Assembly (NCBI GenBank): GCA_048538215.1
Contig: JBLYPV010000001.1
Coordinates: 547,526 to 611,525, forward strand
Source: Patescibacteria group bacterium
GTDB lineage: Bacteria > Patescibacteriota > Minisyncoccia > Phycocordibacterales > GCA-2747955
DNA: 64,000 nt
Direction: 5' to 3'
The position numbers were made by a program, and so were the translations under genes. The notes under the pieces are model-generated. The model was given only the letters and a program-made list of their open reading frames with translations, searched no databases and had not been told where the DNA came from. The stretch's first letter is position 1, and each line of letters opens with the position of its first letter. Shown in pieces: positions 2,770 through 39,175 of this stretch.

Positions 2770-3825
2770 ATGCGTATATTCTATATTAGACGTGGTAGGC
2801 AAGATTTTTCTTTAATCAAACGAGTACACCATTCTTTTAATGATTTGTTGGAGTATCGAGATCAAGAAGGATTTTTTGATGCGTCTCTTGAGTATGCTGG
2901 AGAAGTAGAATATGTGTCATTGACGGATACTCAACGAATATTAGGTGAACAAAATTATGACTGGATTATTATCAATTGGAAACAACAAGGATTTAAAGAT
3001 TTAAATGATAGAGTGGAAGCTATTTTTAAATATTTAGGAAATACTAAAATAAATAAAGCCTTATTTATAAGTGCAGCCCGAGCTGATTATATGCTTCCAG
3101 ATTCCGTATTAAATAATTTTGATATTATATTTAAGCGAGAGCCGTATCGAGATAGAAATAAGTATAATATTTCGGATAAAAATAAAGCTAAGATTGTACC
3201 TACAATGATTCATTGTCCCTTTGTTCATTCTTCGAGAAATAATTTATTATCCAAAATGTTTCATTTAGTACGACCTATAATAAAGCCTTGCACAAAAGGA
3301 GAAGAAAAATATGAAGTAGGGTTCTCTGGAGCTGATGCGGCTGAACATTCCCTAAGAAGAGACGTATGGCAAAGAGTAGTAGATGAAGGATTTACAAAAA
3401 TAGGGGGGCTTCAACCCAATCCTTATACTAAAAGGCCTATACCAGAAAAATTAAAAGGCCCTAGATTGCGAGGTAAGGCCTATCGGGATTCTTTGTGCCA
3501 AGCGAAAATCAATCTAGCTCTTGATGGGATTGGAGAATATACTTTTAGACATCAAGAGCTTTTATATCTTGGTAAATTTATTTTGAGTAGCCCTACAATT
3601 CGTGATCTTGAATTGCCGATACCGCTTGAGGAAGGAAAGCACTATGTGGCCTTTGATGACCTGGATGATATGGTGGCTAAGATCCGCTACTACTTGGAGC
3701 ACGAAGAAGAGCGTAAGCAAATTGCACAGGCAGGCAAAGAATTGTTTGACACATACTACAACCCCGAAAAACATGGGCAAGAAATTAGAAAAGCCCTAAA
3801 ATCAAGTAACAAACTAGGATTTTAG
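2770..3825 (+). CDS. CgeB-like / GT1-like glycosyltransferase (DUF3880-type)
   Basis: C-terminal HYVAFDDLDDMVAKIRYYLEHEEERKQIAQAG resembles the GT1/CgeB C-terminal helix region. Confidence 0.4.
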   Translation: MRIFYIRRGRQDFSLIKRVHHSFNDLLEYRDQEGFFDASLEYAGEVEYVSLTDTQRILGEQNYDWIIINWKQQGFKDLNDRVEAIFKYLGNTKINKALFISAARADYMLPDSVLNNFDIIFKREPYRDRNKYNISDKNKAKIVPTMIHCPFVHSSRNNLLSKMFHLVRPIIKPCTKGEEKYEVGFSGADAAEHSLRRDVWQRVVDEGFTKIGGLQPNPYTKRPIPEKLKGPRLRGKAYRDSLCQAKINLALDGIGEYTFRHQELLYLGKFILSSPTIRDLELPIPLEEGKHYVAFDDLDDMVAKIRYYLEHEEERKQIAQAGKELFDTYYNPEKHGQEIRKALKSSNKLGF

Positions 3826-3844
3826 TAGAGGTAATCGTACGGAG

Positions 3845-5089
3845 CTACTTAATATGACGGAATATGCTTATTACAAATAAGCTGTTGACCATTTCTGATA
3901 TGAGTATGGCATAGACTGCCCCCCAAATTCCATAAATAGGTAAAAGAATATAGAGTAAGGTAAGCTTAAGCCCCACACCACTTATTTGGAAAATATATAA
4001 CCAGGTCGTTTTTTCGTGAGCTATAAGAGTTTGACCATAGACACTAAAAGGGAGTACTAGGATACTGAGAGCTAGTATTTGTGAAATGATGACCGACTCT
4101 GGGTATTGAGGGAAAATCAGACCGAATATTAAGGGAGCTAATATTATATATGATAAGACAATTGCTGATACAATACTAAAAAAGAGCCACACTTTATGAG
4201 GGAGGGTATATTGTAAGGAGGTAAAATCACGCTGAGACACCTTGGGGAGTACTAGTGATTGTACTACCCCTAGCATATTTTTTGTGTACTTGGTGGGCAT
4301 TTGAGCAATGGTGTAGGTGGCGACGGCTATAGCTCCAAGGTGATGATAGACAAGCACCTTATCAATATGTTGTGCGACTCGTCCTGCAAGTTGCATAATA
4401 CTGAGGTGCTTGCTAAAGAGAGTTTTACCCCTAAAGGTATCTATTCTTGGTGGATTAAAGTAGTATAGAGTAATAAAATAGCCAGTAGTTACTGCTATAA
4501 GGTGGCCAGCAAAATACGCAGTAATTAAGATAAGTGGATTTTGTGTAATAAGCACTGTTCCAATAAGAATAAAGGTAGGGATTATCATCCGAAAAACATT
4601 TATAAAGGCACTAAATTTATAAGCTTGCTTGCCAATAATAAATGGTCGATAGAGGTGAAAACTTTCAATGAAAGGGGAAAAAGTGCCCACAATTAGAAAA
4701 GCAATAGCTAAGGTGGAGTTGTCATTGATAAAGTAGTATAGAGCTATCGAAAGGCTTGCAAGTGTGATACCTATATTCCACTTGAGCTTAGTGCGTACTC
4801 CACTCCACAGAGCCCCATCATTCCCCCGGGCTGTTTCGGTTGTAACGGTAGTGGCTAATCCCGTGAGAGTAAAAGCTCCTAGGATAGTCGCGGTAGAGAT
4901 TATAAATTGATAGAGCCCAAGATTTTCTTTATCTATTAGATTAGCCAGTATGATAACAGTAAGTGCTCCTAAGCTTAATTCAATAAAAGATCCAAGGCTG
5001 AGCCAAAAGCCACCATGGGCAAGATAGCGGGTATCAGTGTGTGTATAGCGATTGAGCTTATCAAAAATGGTATCGATGTGGGTACGCAT
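3845..5089 (-). CDS. Wzx-like oligosaccharide flippase (MOP superfamily polysaccharide biosynthesis protein)
   Basis: About 12 predicted TM helices; N-terminus (RYTHTDTRYLAHGGFWLSLG...TETARG) is typical of Wzx/RfbX; paralogous to 6904-8142. Confidence 0.6.
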   Translation of the reverse strand: MRTHIDTIFDKLNRYTHTDTRYLAHGGFWLSLGSFIELSLGALTVIILANLIDKENLGLYQFIISTATILGAFTLTGLATTVTTETARGNDGALWSGVRTKLKWNIGITLASLSIALYYFINDNSTLAIAFLIVGTFSPFIESFHLYRPFIIGKQAYKFSAFINVFRMIIPTFILIGTVLITQNPLILITAYFAGHLIAVTTGYFITLYYFNPPRIDTFRGKTLFSKHLSIMQLAGRVAQHIDKVLVYHHLGAIAVATYTIAQMPTKYTKNMLGVVQSLVLPKVSQRDFTSLQYTLPHKVWLFFSIVSAIVLSYIILAPLIFGLIFPQYPESVIISQILALSILVLPFSVYGQTLIAHEKTTWLYIFQISGVGLKLTLLYILLPIYGIWGAVYAILISEMVNSLFVISIFRHIK

Positions 5090-10103: not shown

Positions 10104-10176
10104 TGCACCTGTGGTGAAATGGATATCACAACGGTCTTCGGAACCGTCGTTCGGGGTTCGAATCCCTGCAGGTGCA
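10104..10176 (+). tRNA. tRNA-Arg (anticodon UCG)
   Basis: Cloverleaf folded by hand: acceptor tgcacct/aggtgca, anticodon stem acggt/accgt with loop cttcgga, T-arm cgggg-ttcgaat-ccctg; followed by hairpin terminator. Confidence 0.7.
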
Positions 10177-18825: not shown

Positions 18826-20760
18826 ATGCCACCTAAAAAAGTAGAAATTCCTCCTAGGAGTATTGAAGACGAAGAGCTTATCAAGCAGGTGAGCTTGGAA
18901 TTGCCTAATAAGGAAATTGTAGATGCGGTGTTGCAAAAGCTACCCCCAGAGCTTTTTGAACACATTGAGGATGTATCACAATTTTTGAATGATTTAGATG
19001 AGCGGGCGAAGGATAAAATTTTTGAACAAAAGGATAAAAGGCAAATCATAGAAGAATTATTGGTCGAAGAGACACGACGCAGAAAGAAAGACTTGGAAAA
19101 TTTTTCTCGTAATGTAAAGACTGGGCAAGAGAGGGTAGCAAGTGCTGAAGAAGAGAGAAAGGTATGGGAAGAGTACGAGAGAGAAAACAAAAAGGCACAA
19201 CGACAGGAAAAAATAATGCAGACTTTTGATAAATATGCGTTTAGAGATGGCGAGCAAGATATGTCAGAGGCGATTGACGCTTTAGGGGAGGGTATTGATG
19301 CACAGGTACAAGAAATAAAAGAAATAGAACGCGCTCAAGAAAAGCGATATCAATCACAGGTGGCAAGTGATAAAGATATTAAAAAATATCGTTCTTTTGC
19401 GCCATTGAATACTCCTGAGGGACGGATACGAGCGATAAAAGAAAGGAGACATCTCGAGGATCAAGAAAAAGCTCGTGAGAGAAAAAATATCGAACAAGCA
19501 AGGGCTGAGCAATTATCTTTTGCTCGCCAAGTAGATCATATGAAGTATGGTGAAAATGATGCTTGGACAAAAAGACGATTAGATTTAGAGGCAGAGCTTT
19601 CAAATAAAAGTAAAAAAAGACAAACAGAGAAAATGAAAGGATACTCGCGCGAAGAGCATGAAAAATTTGGCTTTGAAACACCTGAAAATTATGTAAAGCG
19701 TATTAAGCAAGAGCGCGAGCATGATTCGCATAAGCGATCTGATGAGGATGCACACTTTAGTGATCCGATAGATATTCTCAGTGAAGGTAAAACAGGCACT
19801 CCCTATAAAACAATACTCGAGCAAGGAGAGGTGCTCAAGGATTTTAATGCCACTAAGATTGAAGATTGGAAAAGGAAATTAGACGTATGGAAAAAGGGGG
19901 AAGGTGGGCTCACTATTGAAGAAATCCGCAATGAATTTCCTCTCGAAGCACTTGAGGCATATGATGAGATTGGCTATAAACAGATGCCAGAAGAAATACG
20001 GAAAGCGTGGAGCGTCGTGGGAGCCACTTGGGATAGCTATAAGAGAGGGCTTGGGCTCCGTAATGGTGATCGTGAGGTATACAACGAAGGGGTGCGAGCA
20101 AAGCAATTTAGGATTGGAGATACACAAGAGCGTGCAAGATACATACAAAGTGATAAAGCATACCATCGAGAGGTGGTACAAGCTCAGGCGGATCTAACAG
20201 CACGGATGGAGAAAATAAAACAGAGCGACGATCCAAAATTACTGGCAGAATATCGCACGCTCGCTCGCTACGCTCGCGAGCTTGCGAAGCAAGAAGGGTA
20301 TACCCTTAGTGAAGTGCATAGTATGGAAGGATATAAGCATCACAGTGAGAAATTGAGTGAGATGAATCGAGCCTTTCTCTATGGTAATTTATCAATAGGT
20401 GAATATGTAAGGTCTCCCTTTAAAAATGCCTATCACCTAACCAATATGGCTCGCCATAGCTATAGTAATTGGGAGCAAGGTGCCCTTTTGAGGAATCAAA
20501 AAAATAATAGTGGCTTTGAGCGTTGGGCTAAAGATAAACTGATTAGGACTCCACGAGCTATTGCCTATACTGGCCTTGGGGCACCGGTGGTGCTTTTGGT
20601 AAGTGCGATGGCGCTTGTGTGGAGTACTTGGAAGATAGGGAAATTTATTTTTAAAAAGGCAAAAGGTGCTCCCAAGAAGGGAGACAAGATTAACAATGCA
20701 ATTGATACAGCATTTTTTGAAAAAACAATTATAAAGGAAATAGGCAAATCAGCGAGGTAA
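18826..20760 (+). CDS. K/E/R-rich coiled-coil protein with C-terminal TM anchor
   Basis: Highly charged heptad-like sequence for >450 aa; hydrophobic helix TGLGAPVVLLVSAMALVW near the C-terminus. Confidence 0.45.
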   Translation: MPPKKVEIPPRSIEDEELIKQVSLELPNKEIVDAVLQKLPPELFEHIEDVSQFLNDLDERAKDKIFEQKDKRQIIEELLVEETRRRKKDLENFSRNVKTGQERVASAEEERKVWEEYERENKKAQRQEKIMQTFDKYAFRDGEQDMSEAIDALGEGIDAQVQEIKEIERAQEKRYQSQVASDKDIKKYRSFAPLNTPEGRIRAIKERRHLEDQEKARERKNIEQARAEQLSFARQVDHMKYGENDAWTKRRLDLEAELSNKSKKRQTEKMKGYSREEHEKFGFETPENYVKRIKQEREHDSHKRSDEDAHFSDPIDILSEGKTGTPYKTILEQGEVLKDFNATKIEDWKRKLDVWKKGEGGLTIEEIRNEFPLEALEAYDEIGYKQMPEEIRKAWSVVGATWDSYKRGLGLRNGDREVYNEGVRAKQFRIGDTQERARYIQSDKAYHREVVQAQADLTARMEKIKQSDDPKLLAEYRTLARYARELAKQEGYTLSEVHSMEGYKHHSEKLSEMNRAFLYGNLSIGEYVRSPFKNAYHLTNMARHSYSNWEQGALLRNQKNNSGFERWAKDKLIRTPRAIAYTGLGAPVVLLVSAMALVWSTWKIGKFIFKKAKGAPKKGDKINNAIDTAFFEKTIIKEIGKSAR

Positions 20761-20784: not shown

Positions 20785-22827
20785 ATGGAGGGTATGCTAT
20801 ACTCCTTTGGTATGAAGCTTAATGTGAAGCAAGAAGAGGCAGCGAGGGCACTTGAAGGGCCAGTTTTGGTACTTGCAGGGGCTGGTGCAGGGAAAACAGG
20901 CACGCTTACTGAGCGAATGATTAATCTCATTAAAAATGGCACACCGCCACAATCTATTTTGGCACTTACCTTTACCAACAAGGCTGCCGGCGAGATGAAG
21001 GATCGGGTGCGCGCGTCGGTACAAAAGATGCATAAAACAAGTGCAGAGCTGGAGCTAGCATGGAGCTTGCCTTGGGTGGGCACTTTTCATGCCTTGGGGG
21101 TGATGATTCTTAAAGAACAGCACCGAGAGCTTGGAATTAAGAAGCACTTTAGTATCTACGACAGAGATGATGCACGGAGAGCTATTAAGGAGGCAATCAA
21201 GCAGTGTGACTTGGATCCTAAGGCATGGGATACCAAGCAAATTTTGGGCTTTATTTCTTCTCATAAGGGTAAAAATATTGCACTAGAGGATATCCGTGCC
21301 CAAGGAGATTCTTCTTATTATTTTGATACACTGATTCAAATTTGGGAGCGCTATGAGGAAATTAAGCGTCAAGACGGAGCATTTGATTTTGATGATCTAC
21401 TACTTGAGACTGCCAAGCTTTTGGCAAAACGAGAAGATATTCGCAGGCTCTACCAAACACGCTTTCGCTACATTCACATAGATGAGTATCAAGATACTAA
21501 TCGGGTGCAATATCAAATTGTAAAGCTCTTAATTAATCCTGAGACGCAAAATATTTTTTGTGTAGGAGATCCTGATCAGCTTATTTATGGCTGGCGGGGG
21601 GCCGAGATAGGTAATATTATGCGCTTTGAAAAAGACTTTAAAGATAGTAAGACGATTATTCTAGAGCAGAATTATCGTTCTATGGCTAATATTATTACTG
21701 CTTCAAATGAAGTCATTGCACATAATACTAATCGCTTTAAAAAGGAGCTACAGAGCACTAAAGATGATGGTGAGCTTATAAGCTTGTATGGCGCGTATGA
21801 TGCTCGTGAAGAAGCACGGTGGCTTGCTCGAGAAATATCTATGCTCATCGAATCTGGGAAAGATCCAGGCAGTATGGCGGTCTTGTATCGAGCTAATTTT
21901 CAATCCCGGGCTCTTGAGGAAGCTTGCTTGAGTGCGAATATCCCTTACCAGGTGTTGGGTACTAAATTTTTTGATCGTAGTGAGGTCAAGGATGTAATGG
22001 CGTATATTCGAGCAGCTTTTAATCCCGATGCACTCATTGATGTGCGACGAGTAATAAATATGCCTCGGCGGGGGATTGGCAAAGTGGCTCTGGTAAAAAT
22101 ATTTTCTCATCAAACAGAATCATTACCTGCCAAAACAGCTCAAGCCCTCTCCCTTTTTTATATTATATTGGATGATATTGCTTCTTTTGCTCAAGAAAAC
22201 TCCCCGAGTGAGACGGTGCAGTATGTCATTGAGCGATCAGGGCTTGAAAAGATGTATCGGGCTAGTGGGAAAGAAGAAGACTTGGAACGACTTGCAAATA
22301 TGTATGAGCTCGGGGTGGTAGCAGAAAAATATGATACCCTCGATCAAGAAAATGCCTTGGAAAAATTTCTTGAGGAGATTGCCCTTTTGGGGGATCAAGA
22401 TACTAAGCAGGATGAACAAGCTTCTGTGAAGCTTATGACGATTCATGCTGCTAAAGGGCTTGAATTTGACACTGTGTTTCTCACAGGATGTGAAGAGGAT
22501 TTGTTTAGCCCACGAAGGGAGATGGATCAGAAGGCTATCCGTGAGAAAAGCGAGGAAGAACGCCGACTTTTTTATGTAGCAATGACACGCGCTCGAGATA
22601 AGCTCTATCTCTCGTGGGCATCCTTGCGTGAGGTTTTTGGGACTACGATGGTCAATACACTTGTATCATTTGTGGGGGATATCCCACCTGCGCTCATACA
22701 AGAAGAAGCCCCCATACACAGCGGGACTCTTGCAAGTGGAGCTACTTTGGGACGCTATGATGATTATGATGGCATAGATACGATAGCTGATGATGGAGAA
22801 CAAACTATCGAGCTTTTGGATTGGTAG
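20785..22827 (+). CDS. pcrA: UvrD/PcrA/Rep-family ATP-dependent DNA helicase
   Basis: GAGAGKT Walker A, IHIDEYQDTN motif II, YRSMANI, VLYRANFQSRALEE, MTIHAAKGLEFDTVFL. Confidence 0.85.
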   Translation: MEGMLYSFGMKLNVKQEEAARALEGPVLVLAGAGAGKTGTLTERMINLIKNGTPPQSILALTFTNKAAGEMKDRVRASVQKMHKTSAELELAWSLPWVGTFHALGVMILKEQHRELGIKKHFSIYDRDDARRAIKEAIKQCDLDPKAWDTKQILGFISSHKGKNIALEDIRAQGDSSYYFDTLIQIWERYEEIKRQDGAFDFDDLLLETAKLLAKREDIRRLYQTRFRYIHIDEYQDTNRVQYQIVKLLINPETQNIFCVGDPDQLIYGWRGAEIGNIMRFEKDFKDSKTIILEQNYRSMANIITASNEVIAHNTNRFKKELQSTKDDGELISLYGAYDAREEARWLAREISMLIESGKDPGSMAVLYRANFQSRALEEACLSANIPYQVLGTKFFDRSEVKDVMAYIRAAFNPDALIDVRRVINMPRRGIGKVALVKIFSHQTESLPAKTAQALSLFYIILDDIASFAQENSPSETVQYVIERSGLEKMYRASGKEEDLERLANMYELGVVAEKYDTLDQENALEKFLEEIALLGDQDTKQDEQASVKLMTIHAAKGLEFDTVFLTGCEEDLFSPRREMDQKAIREKSEEERRLFYVAMTRARDKLYLSWASLREVFGTTMVNTLVSFVGDIPPALIQEEAPIHSGTLASGATLGRYDDYDGIDTIADDGEQTIELLDW

Positions 22828-22835
22828 GGATTTTA

Positions 22836-22881
22836 AAATTAGGTATTAATTACTACACGTGTAGTAATTAATACCTAATTT
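22836..22881. repeat. 46-bp perfect palindrome centred on CACGTG (copy 1 of 3)
   Basis: aaattaggtattaattactaCACGTGtagtaattaatacctaattt. Confidence 0.9.
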
Positions 22882-22897
22882 ATGTTATAGTGGAGTA

Positions 22898-23482
22898 ATG
22901 AAATTAGGCAGAAGAGAGAAGGCGGTACTCGAAGAGCTACTCGCGTTCCCTGGAGATTATGCTATGAGCTTTTTGTTGTCTCGTGGGTCACTGATGCGGA
23001 TGTATGATATTGGAATTGAACGAAGAGAAGAGCGGGCTCTTAAGCGACAACAGTACTATGATCTTAAAAAGCGGAAAAAATTATTACTAGAGCGTCTCGA
23101 GCGCAAGGGCCTCGTCACTTTAGTGCCAGATGGGGATGATATACAAGTCAAACTGACCAAAACTGGCCATTCTTTTGCTGGGGTAGCTCAATTGCTCAAT
23201 GCCTCGAATAAGAAAAATGATGCCAAGTGGGATGGCAAGTGGACACTGGTGATGTTTGATATGCCAAAAGATCATTCGTATGAGCGTCAATCATTGGTGC
23301 ACTTGCTCAAACAAGTGGGCTTTATTCAAATTCAGATGTCGAATTATATTTTTCCATATGAGGTGCCTGCAGTGCAAGAATTTTTACTTCGTAATCCAAG
23401 TTTGGGTACTTATTGCCAGATATTTCGAGGAAAGTATCTAGGGGATGATACTAAATTACGAGAGAAATTTGATTTAAGATAA
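22898..23482 (+). CDS. small wHTH protein with C-terminal Cas2/VapD-like ferredoxin-fold domain (PaaX-like?)
   Basis: N-terminus predicted helical (REKAVLEELLAF...); C-terminus WTLVMFDMPKD..ERQSLVHLLKQVGFIQIQMSNYIF resembles the beta1-alpha-beta core of Cas2/PaaX_C; flanked by palindromes. Confidence 0.35.
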   Translation: MKLGRREKAVLEELLAFPGDYAMSFLLSRGSLMRMYDIGIERREERALKRQQYYDLKKRKKLLLERLERKGLVTLVPDGDDIQVKLTKTGHSFAGVAQLLNASNKKNDAKWDGKWTLVMFDMPKDHSYERQSLVHLLKQVGFIQIQMSNYIFPYEVPAVQEFLLRNPSLGTYCQIFRGKYLGDDTKLREKFDLR

Positions 23483-23513
23483 AATTGACTCTATTTAAAA
23501 TATATAGGGTATT

Positions 23514-23561
23514 AAAATTAGGTATTAATTACTACACGTGTAGGGATTAATGCCTAATTTT
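23514..23561. repeat. CACGTG-centred palindrome, copy 2 (imperfect right arm)
   Basis: aaaattaggtattaattactaCACGTGtagggattaatgcctaatttt. Confidence 0.85.
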
Positions 23562-23593
23562 GCTGGGGTGGGGGGTGGAGGTGGTATAATAAA

Positions 23594-24403
23594 ATGATGA
23601 AGGCAAAAAAATCTCTGGGCCAAAATTTTCTCACTCATACTTCCACTCTAGAAAAAATAGCCGGTCAAGCATTGCCTGGTATATTAGTACTTGAGGTGGG
23701 GCCAGGAAAGGGCGCGCTTACTCAAAAATTATTATCTTCTGGGCTACAAGTCCTTGCGGTAGAGAAAGATGAACAATTAGTAGAACACTTACGAGAAAAA
23801 TTTGCCCCAGCGATTCGATCGCAGTCGCTTATCCTGGTATCAGGAGACATTCTTCACTTGGATATACCACTTTTGGTGGGCTACGAGCCCTATCAGATTA
23901 TCGCTAACATACCTTACTACATTACAGGGCACTTTATGCGTATGGTATTAGAATCGGACGCCCTTCCTCAGTGTATGGTGCTCTTACTTCAGCTTGAGGT
24001 AGTAGACCGCATGCTCGCTCGAGATGGAAAACACTCCTTGCTTTCTTTGTCGGTACAGGCATTTGGGCAGGTGTCACGCTTGTGCAAGGTGCCTGCACAT
24101 TACTTCAAGCCAAGCCCTAAAGTGGATTCGGCTGTCGTACGGATAGATGATATTAGCACTAGCTATTTTGAGGATGCTGGGATCACTCCTGAGCAATTCT
24201 TTGCTCTTATTCGCCAGGGCTTTAGTAGTAAACGCAAGACATTCGTCAATAATATGAAAGCTCACAAGCTATATAGCACCTACGACTGGGCTCAGATACT
24301 AGAGACACACAAGATAGACAAGCGAGTGCGGGCTGAGGATATTAGCTTGGAGGATTGGGCAAAGCTCGTGCAAGCTACACACTTGAGCCGTGGTAGAGAA
24401 TAA
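23594..24403 (+). CDS. rsmA: 16S rRNA (adenine1518/1519-N6)-dimethyltransferase
   Basis: SLGQNFL...LEVGPGKGALT...NIPY motifs. Confidence 0.85.
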   Translation: MMKAKKSLGQNFLTHTSTLEKIAGQALPGILVLEVGPGKGALTQKLLSSGLQVLAVEKDEQLVEHLREKFAPAIRSQSLILVSGDILHLDIPLLVGYEPYQIIANIPYYITGHFMRMVLESDALPQCMVLLLQLEVVDRMLARDGKHSLLSLSVQAFGQVSRLCKVPAHYFKPSPKVDSAVVRIDDISTSYFEDAGITPEQFFALIRQGFSSKRKTFVNNMKAHKLYSTYDWAQILETHKIDKRVRAEDISLEDWAKLVQATHLSRGRE

Positions 24404-37121: not shown

Positions 37122-38018
37122 TTAAGTATTGCCGTGATATTTACTGTGCACCTCTTTGAGAAATTTATCTGAAAGCTTGGTGTATACCTGGGTGGTATTG
37201 ATACTAGCGTGCCCTAGGAGCATCTGTACCGAGCGAATATCAGCACCATTGTGGAGCAGGTCGGTAGCAAAATAGTGGCGTAGATCATGTGGAGTCACCC
37301 TGCGCATAATCCCTGCTTCTCGTGCGCGCTTGTTGAGAATCCGCTGGACGGCTCGTGGGTAGATAGCACTTCCTGTTTTCATCACAAAAAGTGCAGGCGA
37401 GAGAATAGGGAGATCTGCTTGGTGTCGAAGATCCAGATAGGCGCGCGTGGCTCTGCGGGCAGCTTGGGAGATAAACACGAGGCGTAATTTCTCGCCTTTT
37501 CCACGGATGGTTAGCTCATCGCGAGACAAATCGATGTCTTCTTTGAGGCTACAAAGCTCGGACACGCGAAGCCCTGTGGAGTAAAGGAATTCGAGAATTG
37601 CTTTGTCGCGAATGTCTTCAAGATCGCTACCGCTTGGGGCGCTCATCAGGCGATTAAATTCATCACGGGTGATTACATCAAGCTCTCGCTGGGCTGTTTG
37701 GGCGAGCTCGATTTTGCTAGCTTCGAGCGTGCTTATATCCCGCTTGGCAAGGTATTTTAAAAAAGAGCGAAGGGCGATGAGGTATTTGTTTTGTGTGGTT
37801 TTTTTCATTGTTCCTTCACGAGTAGGGCTTCTATTGAGCGCGATGCGAAAGGATCGGACAGATTCGGCGGTGATATCTTGAACGCGAGTGATCTGTGCGT
37901 ATTCAAAATACGCTTTGATGTAGCGTTCGTACATAGTAATAGTATGCACACTGCGCCCCTTTTCAATTTCGAGGTACTCAAGGAATTCACCAAGGTAGTG
38001 AGTAGTATTCTGCGACAT
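37122..38018 (-). CDS. xerC: XerC/XerD-family tyrosine recombinase
   Basis: C-terminal HDLRHYFATDLLHNGADIRSVQMLLGHASINTTQVYT (R..HxxR..Y); start set at MSQNTTHYL. Confidence 0.8.
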   Translation of the reverse strand: MSQNTTHYLGEFLEYLEIEKGRSVHTITMYERYIKAYFEYAQITRVQDITAESVRSFRIALNRSPTREGTMKKTTQNKYLIALRSFLKYLAKRDISTLEASKIELAQTAQRELDVITRDEFNRLMSAPSGSDLEDIRDKAILEFLYSTGLRVSELCSLKEDIDLSRDELTIRGKGEKLRLVFISQAARRATRAYLDLRHQADLPILSPALFVMKTGSAIYPRAVQRILNKRAREAGIMRRVTPHDLRHYFATDLLHNGADIRSVQMLLGHASINTTQVYTKLSDKFLKEVHSKYHGNT

Positions 38019-38135
38019 AATTGTATTGTAATCTAAAAATTGGAAATTAAAAATCAAAATGGATTGAGTGGGAGTGTTTTAATGACATTGCTTATTTTTT
38101 AATGACATTGCTTATATAGGGGACATATAGGGCAG

Positions 38136-38187
38136 AAAAATTAGGTAATAATCCCAACACGTGTAGGGATTATTACCTAATTTTTTT
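38136..38187. repeat. CACGTG-centred palindrome, copy 3
   Basis: aaaaattaggtaataatcccaaCACGTGtagggattattacctaattttt; inner arms differ from copy 1 but stay complementary. Confidence 0.85.
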
Positions 38188-38227
38188 ATGTGTTGCAAAT
38201 ATCCTATTTTTAGGTAGAATATCGGCT

Positions 38228-38494
38228 ATGTCAAAACGAACAGAGCTTAGCAACAAAGCACTTACTGAAGTGGATGGGGTAAATAATCCAGGCAGTACTG
38301 CTTCTCAGATTGCTATTTTGAGCCAACGAATTGCAAACCTACAAGAACACTTAGTGAGCAATAAAAAAGATAAACATTCTCGCCGAGGCCTCTTGCAAAT
38401 GGTATCGAAGCGAAGGAAGCTTATCAAATATCTTAAGCGTACCGATGAGCAAGCTTGGGGCGAATTAGCTAGCACGCTTGGCCTCAAGGCCTAA
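38228..38494 (+). CDS. rpsO: 30S ribosomal protein S15
   Basis: Typical S15 length and sequence (...HSRRGLLQMVSKRRKLIKYLKR...). Confidence 0.9.
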   Translation: MSKRTELSNKALTEVDGVNNPGSTASQIAILSQRIANLQEHLVSNKKDKHSRRGLLQMVSKRRKLIKYLKRTDEQAWGELASTLGLKA

Positions 38495-38560
38495 AGCTAC
38501 CTCCTCCCCTGGGGGTTGTTTTGGTTTATCTTTTGTGAATTATCCTTTATACTAAGCTAT

Positions 38561-39175
38561 ATGACAGCCATTAAGCACCACGAGCAACGAGTAGGGGTAT
38601 TTATTGATACTCAAAATTTATATCATTCGGCAAAAAATCTATACGGAAAGCGTATCAATTTTGGAGCAGTCTTGGAAACGGCGGTAGCTAATCGACAGCT
38701 GATTCGGGCACTTGCTTATGTCATCACTACCGAATCAGGCGAAGAGAGCGAATTTTTTGAAGCACTGGGCAAATTGGGAATCGAGACAAAATCTAAAGAT
38801 TTGCAAATTTTTTTAGGAGGGGCAAAAAAGGCGGATTGGGATGTGGGCTTGGCAATTGATGCGGTGCGGGCTGCCCCCAAGCTTGATACGGTAGTGATCG
38901 TGTCTGGTGATGGTGATTTTGTCCCCTTAGTGGAATACTTGCAACACAATCAGGGCTGTCAGGTAGAAGTGATTTCTTTTGCCAAATCATCTTCCGCTCG
39001 GCTTATTGAACGAGCTGATGATTTTATTGATCTGGGGGCAGAGCCACGCACCTACCTACTTGGCTCGAAGCGTAAAAAAGATACAAATACCTCGACTAAA
39101 AAAGGTAAAGAAAGCTCACGAGTAGCTATTAAAAAACAAAGCCCACGCGGTGGAGCTACGATAAGTAAAGCGTAG
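38561..39175 (+). CDS. NYN-domain (LabA-like PIN-related) protein
   Basis: VGVFIDTQNLY...VIVSGDGDFVPLVEYLQ pattern; basic tail. Confidence 0.6.
   Translation: MTAIKHHEQRVGVFIDTQNLYHSAKNLYGKRINFGAVLETAVANRQLIRALAYVITTESGEESEFFEALGKLGIETKSKDLQIFLGGAKKADWDVGLAIDAVRAAPKLDTVVIVSGDGDFVPLVEYLQHNQGCQVEVISFAKSSSARLIERADDFIDLGAEPRTYLLGSKRKKDTNTSTKKGKESSRVAIKKQSPRGGATISKA

Follow-up and report, generated by a model that had tools for sequence, protein, structure and literature searches.

What does a small bacterial gene do with two long palindromes, one on each side of it? This question is raised by a 64,000-nt stretch of the genome of a Patescibacteria group bacterium (assembly GCA_048538215.1, contig JBLYPV010000001.1, positions 547,526 to 611,525; here called the window), in which an open reading frame (ORF) at positions 22898 to 23482 of the plus strand is flanked by near-identical palindromic sequences. 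The ORF is present exactly as described in the initial annotation of this DNA, starts with ATG, and encodes a 194-amino-acid protein identical to the NCBI entry "hypothetical protein ACKKL4_03035" of a Patescibacteria group metagenome-assembled genome (MAG), whose contig is 622,806 bp long. We call it mini-PaaX; a predicted N-terminal winged helix is fused to the Cas2-like PaaX_M domain, and the domain with which true PaaX ends is missing. We consider it probable that mini-PaaX acts as a dimer or higher-order oligomer that binds its cognate palindromes, autoregulates its own gene, and has a few additional targets.

The upstream palindrome, copy 1 (22836 to 22881), is a perfect 46-bp palindrome that reads AAATTAGGTATTAATTACTACAC to the left of its center and GTGTAGTAATTAATACCTAATTT to the right. 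It begins 8 nt past the stop codon of a gene for a UvrD/PcrA-type helicase (uvrD; 20785 to 22827, from the Pfam scan and the ORF list) and ends 4 nt before the putative -10 hexamer of the mini-PaaX gene. The downstream palindrome, copy 2 (23514 to 23561), is 88% self-complementary and identical to copy 1 at 43 of 46 positions. It starts 31 nt past the mini-PaaX stop codon and ends 23 nt before the putative -10 hexamer of the next gene, ksgA/rsmA (23594 to 24403, plus strand; identified in the Pfam scan). The two copies are 91% identical over 54 nt, and no such match (0) is expected in shuffled sequence. The palindromic flanks pointed out in the initial annotation are therefore real; a third copy in the window and the conservation of the bracket as a hallmark of a very large family go beyond what had been claimed.

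The size of the family was assessed with an exhaustive HMMER search, which gave 1,711 representative clusters (50% identity) at an E value of ≤1e-3. The listed homologues are nearly all 175 to 215 amino acids long, and thus the two-domain mini-PaaX represents a large family and not a truncation artifact. The 80 loci taken from species-representative genomes were all from MAGs of Patescibacteria, also known as the Candidate Phyla Radiation (CPR), apart from a few with evidently mislabeled titles. Homology searches of 2.9 million viral contigs and 72,556 plasmids found no family members. Our literature searches returned no description of a mini-PaaX family or of its palindrome bracket.

To score the bracket, the 300 nt before and the 300 nt after a gene were compared without gaps and their best match was taken, with a threshold score of at least 14, and other genes of the same loci served as controls. 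A match at or above this threshold was found for 59 of 83 family genes (71%) but for only 5 of 215 control genes (2%), and the match was clearly palindromic for 39 of the 83 family genes and for none of the 215 controls. Metagenome loci from the Joint Genome Institute, among which no orthologue above ~39% identity was recovered, were used as an independent replication set; here, the threshold was reached in 39 of 55 loci and the match was palindromic in 30 of 55. When pairs in either orientation were counted, 114 family loci over both sets had a repeat pair.

The sequences of the palindromes vary with the lineage. The closest orthologues, at loci L001 and L002, share 51% to 53% protein identity with mini-PaaX. 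In L001, the gene is flanked by two 40-nt palindromes that are 100% identical, and in L002, a 44-nt palindrome follows the stop codon. Both share with the window the core CTACACGTGTAG (center CTACAC/GTGTAG), and their arms differ from those in the window, the changes being symmetric. Distant homologues (about 25% to 33% identity) have the same layout with wholly different palindromes, such as TGCTTGCATTATTTCCAT followed by ATGGAAATAATGCAAGCA in L003. Over the family, the palindromes have a median arm length of 18 nt and a mean GC content of 35%. Their centers are short and conserved and can be grouped into a few classes with the pattern RC-N4-GY (ACGGCCGT, GCATATGC, GCTATAGC, ACGATCGT, GCAATTGC, and ACACGTGT), and the arms are lineage specific. 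Paralogues within one MAG also have different arms, as seen for L018 and L036, for L049 and L052, and for the two family genes of L012, which lie within 3 kb of each other (3815 to 4384 on the plus strand and about 1221 to 1712 on the minus strand), the second one having a downstream copy only.

The relative orientation of the two copies shows no preference (48 direct versus 38 inverted; P = 0.33), which speaks against an origin of the flanks as elements like terminal inverted repeats or by tandem duplication. A different kind of flank was seen in one Paceibacterota MAG (L085), in which the gene lies between nonpalindromic 149-nt direct repeats (1727 to 1875 and 2781 to 2929) that are 100% identical; these may have arisen by recent duplication, be the footprint of an insertion, or reflect an assembly artifact.

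The immediate neighbors of the family genes comprise 86 upstream and 83 downstream Pfam families, none of which occurs in more than five loci. They are diverse housekeeping genes, including gyrB, uvrB, uvrD, rpoB, and genes for tRNA synthetases and NUDIX proteins. A conserved functional partner gene was rejected, as no neighbor Pfam family is recurrent, and no transposase or integrase families were found among the commonest neighbor families. The order uvrD-X-ksgA is restricted to the orthologous subgroup of the window, and uvrD and/or ksgA are kept as neighbors at ~25% to 30% protein identity (L003, L009, L015, L063, and L001). Within this subgroup, the palindromes are fully diverged between genomes and alike within each genome. 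The stable position, together with palindromes that have diverged between but not within genomes, indicates that the locus is vertically inherited and that the two sites co-evolve with the protein. The survey of related genomes proposed earlier for this locus thus found a conserved bracket among diverse housekeeping neighbors.

The protein itself had been read from its sequence as a helical, winged-helix-like N-terminal half followed by a Cas2/ferredoxin-like C-terminal half, and this structural reading is supported by domain, profile, and fold matches. Pfam identifies PaaX_M (PF20803, "PaaX protein central Cas2-like domain") at residues 109 to 184 (23222 to 23449, plus strand) with an E value of 7.5e-14 and 52 bits against a cutoff of 24, and PADLOC profiles of type II Cas2 match residues 115 to 152 (E = 2.6e-6). 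The general models are below threshold: the cas2 models PF09827 and TIGR01573 gave 12.2 bits (cutoff, 23.8) and 21.5 bits (cutoff, 24.5), respectively, and the NCBIfam PaaX model TIGR02277 gave 22.2 bits (cutoff, 264.55). When a profile was built from 52 diverse homologues, it matched type II-A Cas2 chains of solved structure via the motif lViFDiPe..R..L...L...GF..Q.SVy (FDMP..R..GF..Q.SVY for the C-terminal half of mini-PaaX). The AlphaFold2 model (mean predicted local distance difference test [pLDDT] score, 69; C-terminal domain, 80 to 86) has the β-α-β-β-α-β order expected of the quoted C-terminal segment, which is present in the protein (β, 115 to 120; α, 124 to 140; β, 143 to 146; β, 149 to 152; α, 157 to 170; β, 173 to 178). 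An Asp at the end of the first strand had been singled out for checking. Asp121 (codon at 23258 to 23260, plus strand), directly after β1, is invariant in the 52 homologues, as are W111, W115, R130, and P153.

The winged-helix region covers residues ~1 to 105 (22898 to 23212, plus strand). In the model, it consists of helices 5 to 15, 31 to 36, and 43 to 69 followed by a β-hairpin wing at 73 to 86 (pLDDT score for this helix-helix-helix-wing unit, 60 to 78). Residues 43 to 94 weakly match the winged-helix model DUF6293_C in Pfam (1.5e-4, below its cutoff), and the N terminus of the 52-homologue profile aligns to the winged-helix protein TubR (5.9e-5). The Pfam model of the PaaX N terminus does not match the N-terminal half, but residues 61 to 118 of the family profile align to residues 57 to 113 of Escherichia coli PaaX (PDB 8a39), the WDGKW signature included.

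In Foldseek comparisons with the PDB, E. coli PaaX ranked first (E = 4e-5; probability, 1.0; 198 aligned columns), followed by VapD (3ui3 and 6zi1; E of ~0.03 to 0.08) and then by many Cas2 chains, so that the searches against Cas2, VapD, and PaaX suggested for this protein placed no unrelated fold on top. A PHROGs search found nothing, and phmmer with the single sequence against the PDB found nothing useful. Of the PaaX-type architecture proposed in the initial annotation, the whole-length resemblance stands, and the PaaX_C domain is missing: Pfam gives no match to it at E values of ≤10, and the protein ends 10 residues after PaaX_M. The protein had also been called an orphan, which is correct within the window. 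The Tandem Repeats Finder scan detected no CRISPR array in the 64 kb, and no Cas domains were found in the Pfam scan, which covered the neighbors and the large ORFs of the window.

The position of the palindromes relative to putative promoters argues for a regulatory role. The putative extended -10 element of the mini-PaaX gene, TGTTATAGT (22883 to 22891, plus strand), ends 6 nt before the ATG at 22898, and that of ksgA, TGGTATAAT (23582 to 23590, plus strand), ends 6 nt before the second ATG of this gene, at 23597. A promoter-like TTGCAA-16-TAGAAT (38193 to 38220, plus strand) precedes the rpsO ATG at 38228. In all three genes, the -10-like hexamer ends 6 to 7 nt before the ATG (22886 to 22898, 23585 to 23597, and 38215 to 38228, counted from the first base of the hexamer to the ATG). 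The same geometry was seen across the family, where the distance from the hexamer to the start codon is most often 6 to 7 nt (23 of 64 cases). In the upstream copies, -10-like hexamers are overrepresented immediately 3' to the palindrome center and typically begin ~4 nt past the end of the palindrome; in the CATATG (GCATATGC) group, the right palindrome arm itself holds TGCTAnAAT. The gap of 6 to 7 nt therefore points to leaderless mRNAs, with the core promoter abutting or overlapping the palindrome, and suggests that leaderless transcripts are common in the source organism.

The third copy of the palindrome (38138 to 38183), found in a relaxed scan, brings the total in the window to three in 64 kb; an exact-pattern search with the palindrome core and an arm gave 0 hits in the genome_contigs collection, which does not contain the source MAG. 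Copy 3 is identical to copy 1 at 39 of 46 positions and is a nearly perfect palindrome; of the four substitutions in its arms, three have a compensating change on the other side. It is located in a divergent promoter region, between a gene for an XerC/D-type recombinase (37122 to 38057, minus strand), from which it lies 80 nt upstream, and rpsO (38228 to 38494, plus strand), and it ends 9 nt before the promoter-like site of the latter. Two further features were noted around this copy. An exact 20-bp tandem direct repeat (two units of TTTTAATGACATTGCTTATT; 38077 to 38115) between the start of the recombinase gene and copy 3 could be another regulatory or recombinase-related site. Directly downstream of rpsO, a gene for an NYN-domain protein, a predicted RNase (38516 to 39175), may be cotranscribed from the promoter beside copy 3.

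Taken with the fold of the protein, these positions suggest how the system could work. Mini-PaaX would dimerize through its Cas2-like domain, by analogy with Cas2, and the symmetric oligomer would bind the 46-bp palindromes beside its own gene. Relative to the putative extended -10 leaderless promoter, copy 1 covers about -62 to -17, so its occupancy most likely represses the gene. Copy 2, after the stop codon, may be an auxiliary operator that serves in looping or as a roadblock insulating the gene, and in the source genome it is also followed by the putative ksgA promoter. Through copy 3, the regulon would take in the divergent rpsO and xerC promoters as well. The regulon in the source genome plausibly comprises the ksgA and rpsO/xerC promoters, and these predicted targets suggest a link to ribosome biogenesis.

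Several observations weigh against mini-PaaX as a simple autorepressor. The palindrome centers are at about -39.5, -59.5, and -67.5 from the putative starts of mini-PaaX, ksgA, and rpsO, respectively, and these positions would equally suit an activator. The predicted binding sites measure 36 to 46 bp, which is more than one would expect if a simple dimer bound them, and autoregulators do not usually have a site immediately past the stop codon. In the family, the downstream copies start ~8 nt past the stop codon, with a median distance of 26 nt from stop to center. The pair is kept with a convergent next gene in 26 of 34 cases and with a codirectional one in 27 of 41; an operator of the next gene was rejected as a general explanation of the downstream copy because the pair is retained equally beside convergent genes. 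When upstream and downstream copies of one locus were compared, 43 positions were compensated, against ~10 expected (Fisher P = 1e-22 for the co-occurrence of arm differences). Such compensation points to self-complementarity being kept, which recognition of half-sites alone would not need. The symmetry could be kept by selection for a hairpin or cruciform or by template-switch "quasipalindrome correction," a known process that restores symmetry. Partial correlations of palindrome similarity with the similarity of the winged helix-turn-helix or of the Cas2-like domain were weak and nondiscriminating; in this protein-DNA covariation test, the winged helix-turn-helix domain did not stand out. 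Finally, the Asp at the Cas2 catalytic position is invariant and may have an enzymatic role.

The first alternative is that the palindromes act independently of the protein, as transcript-level hairpins that terminate transcription, insulate the gene, or stabilize its mRNA and so stop read-through transcription from entering a small gene within a compact genome. Some features of the sites fit this explanation. The hairpins are very stable (z = -4.8 to -7.6; -6.0 for copy 1, as an RNA or DNA hairpin), copy 1 is terminator-like by a simple scan and starts 8 nt past the uvrD stop codon, the family downstream copies likewise follow the stop codon closely, and copies 2 and 3 end in T runs. However, six or more T's follow only 18% of the family downstream copies, and the GC content of the stems is only 35%. 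Divergent gene starts flank copy 3 and many upstream copies, and there would be no use for a terminator at the position of copy 3. The conserved part of the palindromes is the center, which would form the loop, whereas the stems vary, and the palindromes are paralogue specific within one genome and alike on both sides of the gene, neither of which generic terminators need. G·T-type and A·C-type mismatches are equally frequent (46 each), so there is no strand-specific signature of RNA wobble pairing. No Rfam family was matched, and the hairpins gave only chance matches to microRNA models. We therefore regard a purely transcript-level role as unlikely.

A second alternative takes the Cas2-like domain as a structure-specific DNA enzyme. 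By analogy with RAYT/REP systems or with IS200/IS605 TnpA and its flanking hairpins, a nuclease or nickase would act on palindrome hairpins or cruciforms and so cause an invertible or mobile cassette to be flipped, excised, or copied. Asp121 is invariant at the Cas2 catalytic position in a motif closest to that of type II Cas2. Each palindrome copy keeps its self-complementarity even where the copies differ, the center, which would be the hairpin apex, is the most conserved part, and the two copies have no preferred relative orientation. In addition, the palindrome-gene-palindrome cassette of L001 (1 to 1456) is inverted relative to ksgA in comparison with the window (22828 to 23600), and the contig end reads ...DW*, like the C terminus of UvrD in the window. 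This gives a weak indication of an in situ flip between the two palindromes. On the other hand, any two palindromic repeats can be expected to recombine and so invert the segment between them in the course of evolution, with no enzyme dedicated to it. The palindromes have not been amplified: further copies were found in only 3 of 50 loci of ~8 kb, and there is one in the 64 kb of the window. Synteny is stable within subgroups, the neighbors are housekeeping genes, with neither transposases nor integrases among their commonest families, and the family is absent from the viral and plasmid collections. In the alignment of 52 sequences, the columns that are invariant or nearly so include neither a His-hydrophobic-His motif nor a Tyr, one of which an HUH or tyrosine enzyme would need. 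Moreover, even CRISPR adaptation can proceed without the nuclease activity of Cas2, in which the residues concerned have a structural role. Such an enzyme is in our judgment quite unlikely, and equally so the broader idea that these loci are unrecognized self-bracketed units of Patescibacteria in which a Cas2-derived domain nicks or resolves a cruciform or hairpin to flip, insulate, or homogenize the cassette. If it were true, a cruciform- or hairpin-acting Cas2 domain would explain the two-sided site, the perfect self-complementarity that each copy retains despite its differences from the other, and the inverted cassette in a close relative, and it would provide a free-living functional context for the Cas2 fold beyond CRISPR and toxin-antitoxin systems.

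Two other explanations are very improbable. The palindromes could be Xer/dif-like sites, with the gene as the cargo of a cassette resembling the pdif modules of Acinetobacter, in which genes are bracketed by recombinase-type sites, and with copy 3 as the chromosomal site beside the recombinase gene; the closeness of copy 3 to the XerC/D-type gene, a similar recombinase gene two genes from the family gene in P0007 loci, and arms around a 6- to 8-bp center that resemble recombinase core sites are in line with this, but the palindromes differ wholly between lineages and between paralogues of one genome, whereas Xer recombinases and dif sites are conserved, no recombinase is among the commonest immediate-neighbor families, the recombinase gene of L003 has no adjoining palindrome copy, and symmetric centers would give no directionality. 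The toxin-like function that the initial annotation had offered next to an autonomous regulator, here taken as a single-gene addiction or defense module in which a VapD/Cas2-like toxin carries its own DNA-binding autoregulatory part, fits the VapD matches, the conserved acidic residue after β1, and the compact, self-contained module, but it has no antitoxin-like partner gene, PADLOC yields only Cas2 profiles and no defense system for the protein, the same housekeeping neighbors (uvrD and/or ksgA) are stably inherited with the gene in several distant genomes, and 1,711 clusters, with all sampled loci in Patescibacteria MAGs, fit a core regulator better. Of the two functions, it is the regulator that the family-wide evidence favors.

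As a palindrome-binding regulator, mini-PaaX can be compared with several known systems. PaaX, the phenylacetyl-coenzyme A-responsive repressor of the paa operon (TIGR02277/COG3327), shares with it the layout of a winged helix, predicted in mini-PaaX, followed by PaaX_M, and the WDGKW signature, and mini-PaaX is, like PaaX, a presumed binder of palindromic operators. PaaX is longer (~305 to 316 amino acids, versus 194) and has the PaaX_C domain that mini-PaaX lacks. Mini-PaaX is found in a Patescibacteria host next to uvrD and ksgA and not next to paa genes, and its predicted operator, which is far longer, occurs both before and after the gene. Cas2 and VapD share the ferredoxin-like β-α-β-β-α-β fold, the motif [LV]xFD[MIV]P...R...GF..Q.S[VN]Y, and the Asp after β1; mini-PaaX differs in scoring below the Cas2 gathering thresholds and in its fusion to a winged helix-turn-helix, and neither cas1, a CRISPR array, nor a VapX-like partner turned up among the scanned features of the window. 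The family thus shows the Cas2 fold in wide use beside a winged helix where no PaaX effector domain is present, which bears on the relationship between PaaX and Cas2.

In architecture, the nearest systems are lambda cI, RAYT, and pdif, none of which is homologous. The lambda cI gene lies between the OL and OR operator sets, and CI, like the looping regulators Lac, Gal, and DeoR, provides an analogy of a repressor gene between its own operators, with looping and tight autoregulation. The analogy concerns architecture only: the proteins are unrelated, and mini-PaaX has one long palindrome per side, the downstream one right after the stop codon and kept family-wide. RAYT genes with REP/REPIN sequences and Acinetobacter pdif modules are likewise single genes bracketed by lineage-specific palindromic sites, which co-evolve with the gene or are recognized by the cognate enzyme. 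Mini-PaaX differs from them in having neither HUH nor tyrosine recombinase chemistry, no dispersal in many copies, and no evidence of mobility.

The protein itself looks like an ordinary regulator; what sets it apart is that, across a very large CPR family, the genes are bracketed by long palindromes of their own that co-evolve with the protein, together with the copy that follows the stop codon. Patescibacteria have tiny genomes with few recognizable regulators, and, to our knowledge, almost none of their regulation has been characterized experimentally. The bracket gives a way to predict small regulons in these uncultured organisms, and the sampled loci contain more than 100 candidate protein-operator pairs ready for testing. 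If the predicted binding is true, these pairs would also be a source of orthogonal repressor and operator parts. The conserved downstream copy may point to a strategy of gene insulation in genomes with short intergenic regions.

Other features of the window were observed outside the mini-PaaX locus. Directly upstream of uvrD, a 943-amino-acid ORF (15906 to 18737) with weak matches to TrwB/TraG-type coupling-protein and HerA-like ATPase domains is followed by a 644-amino-acid ORF (18826 to 20760) that has no Pfam match; the two may form a gene pair related to secretion or DNA transfer. Further upstream, a 77-bp unit is repeated 2.1 times with 98% identity (10663 to 10827) and overlaps the 5' end of a minus-strand tRNA gene (10601 to 10671), and a second tRNA gene is located at positions 10105 to 10176.

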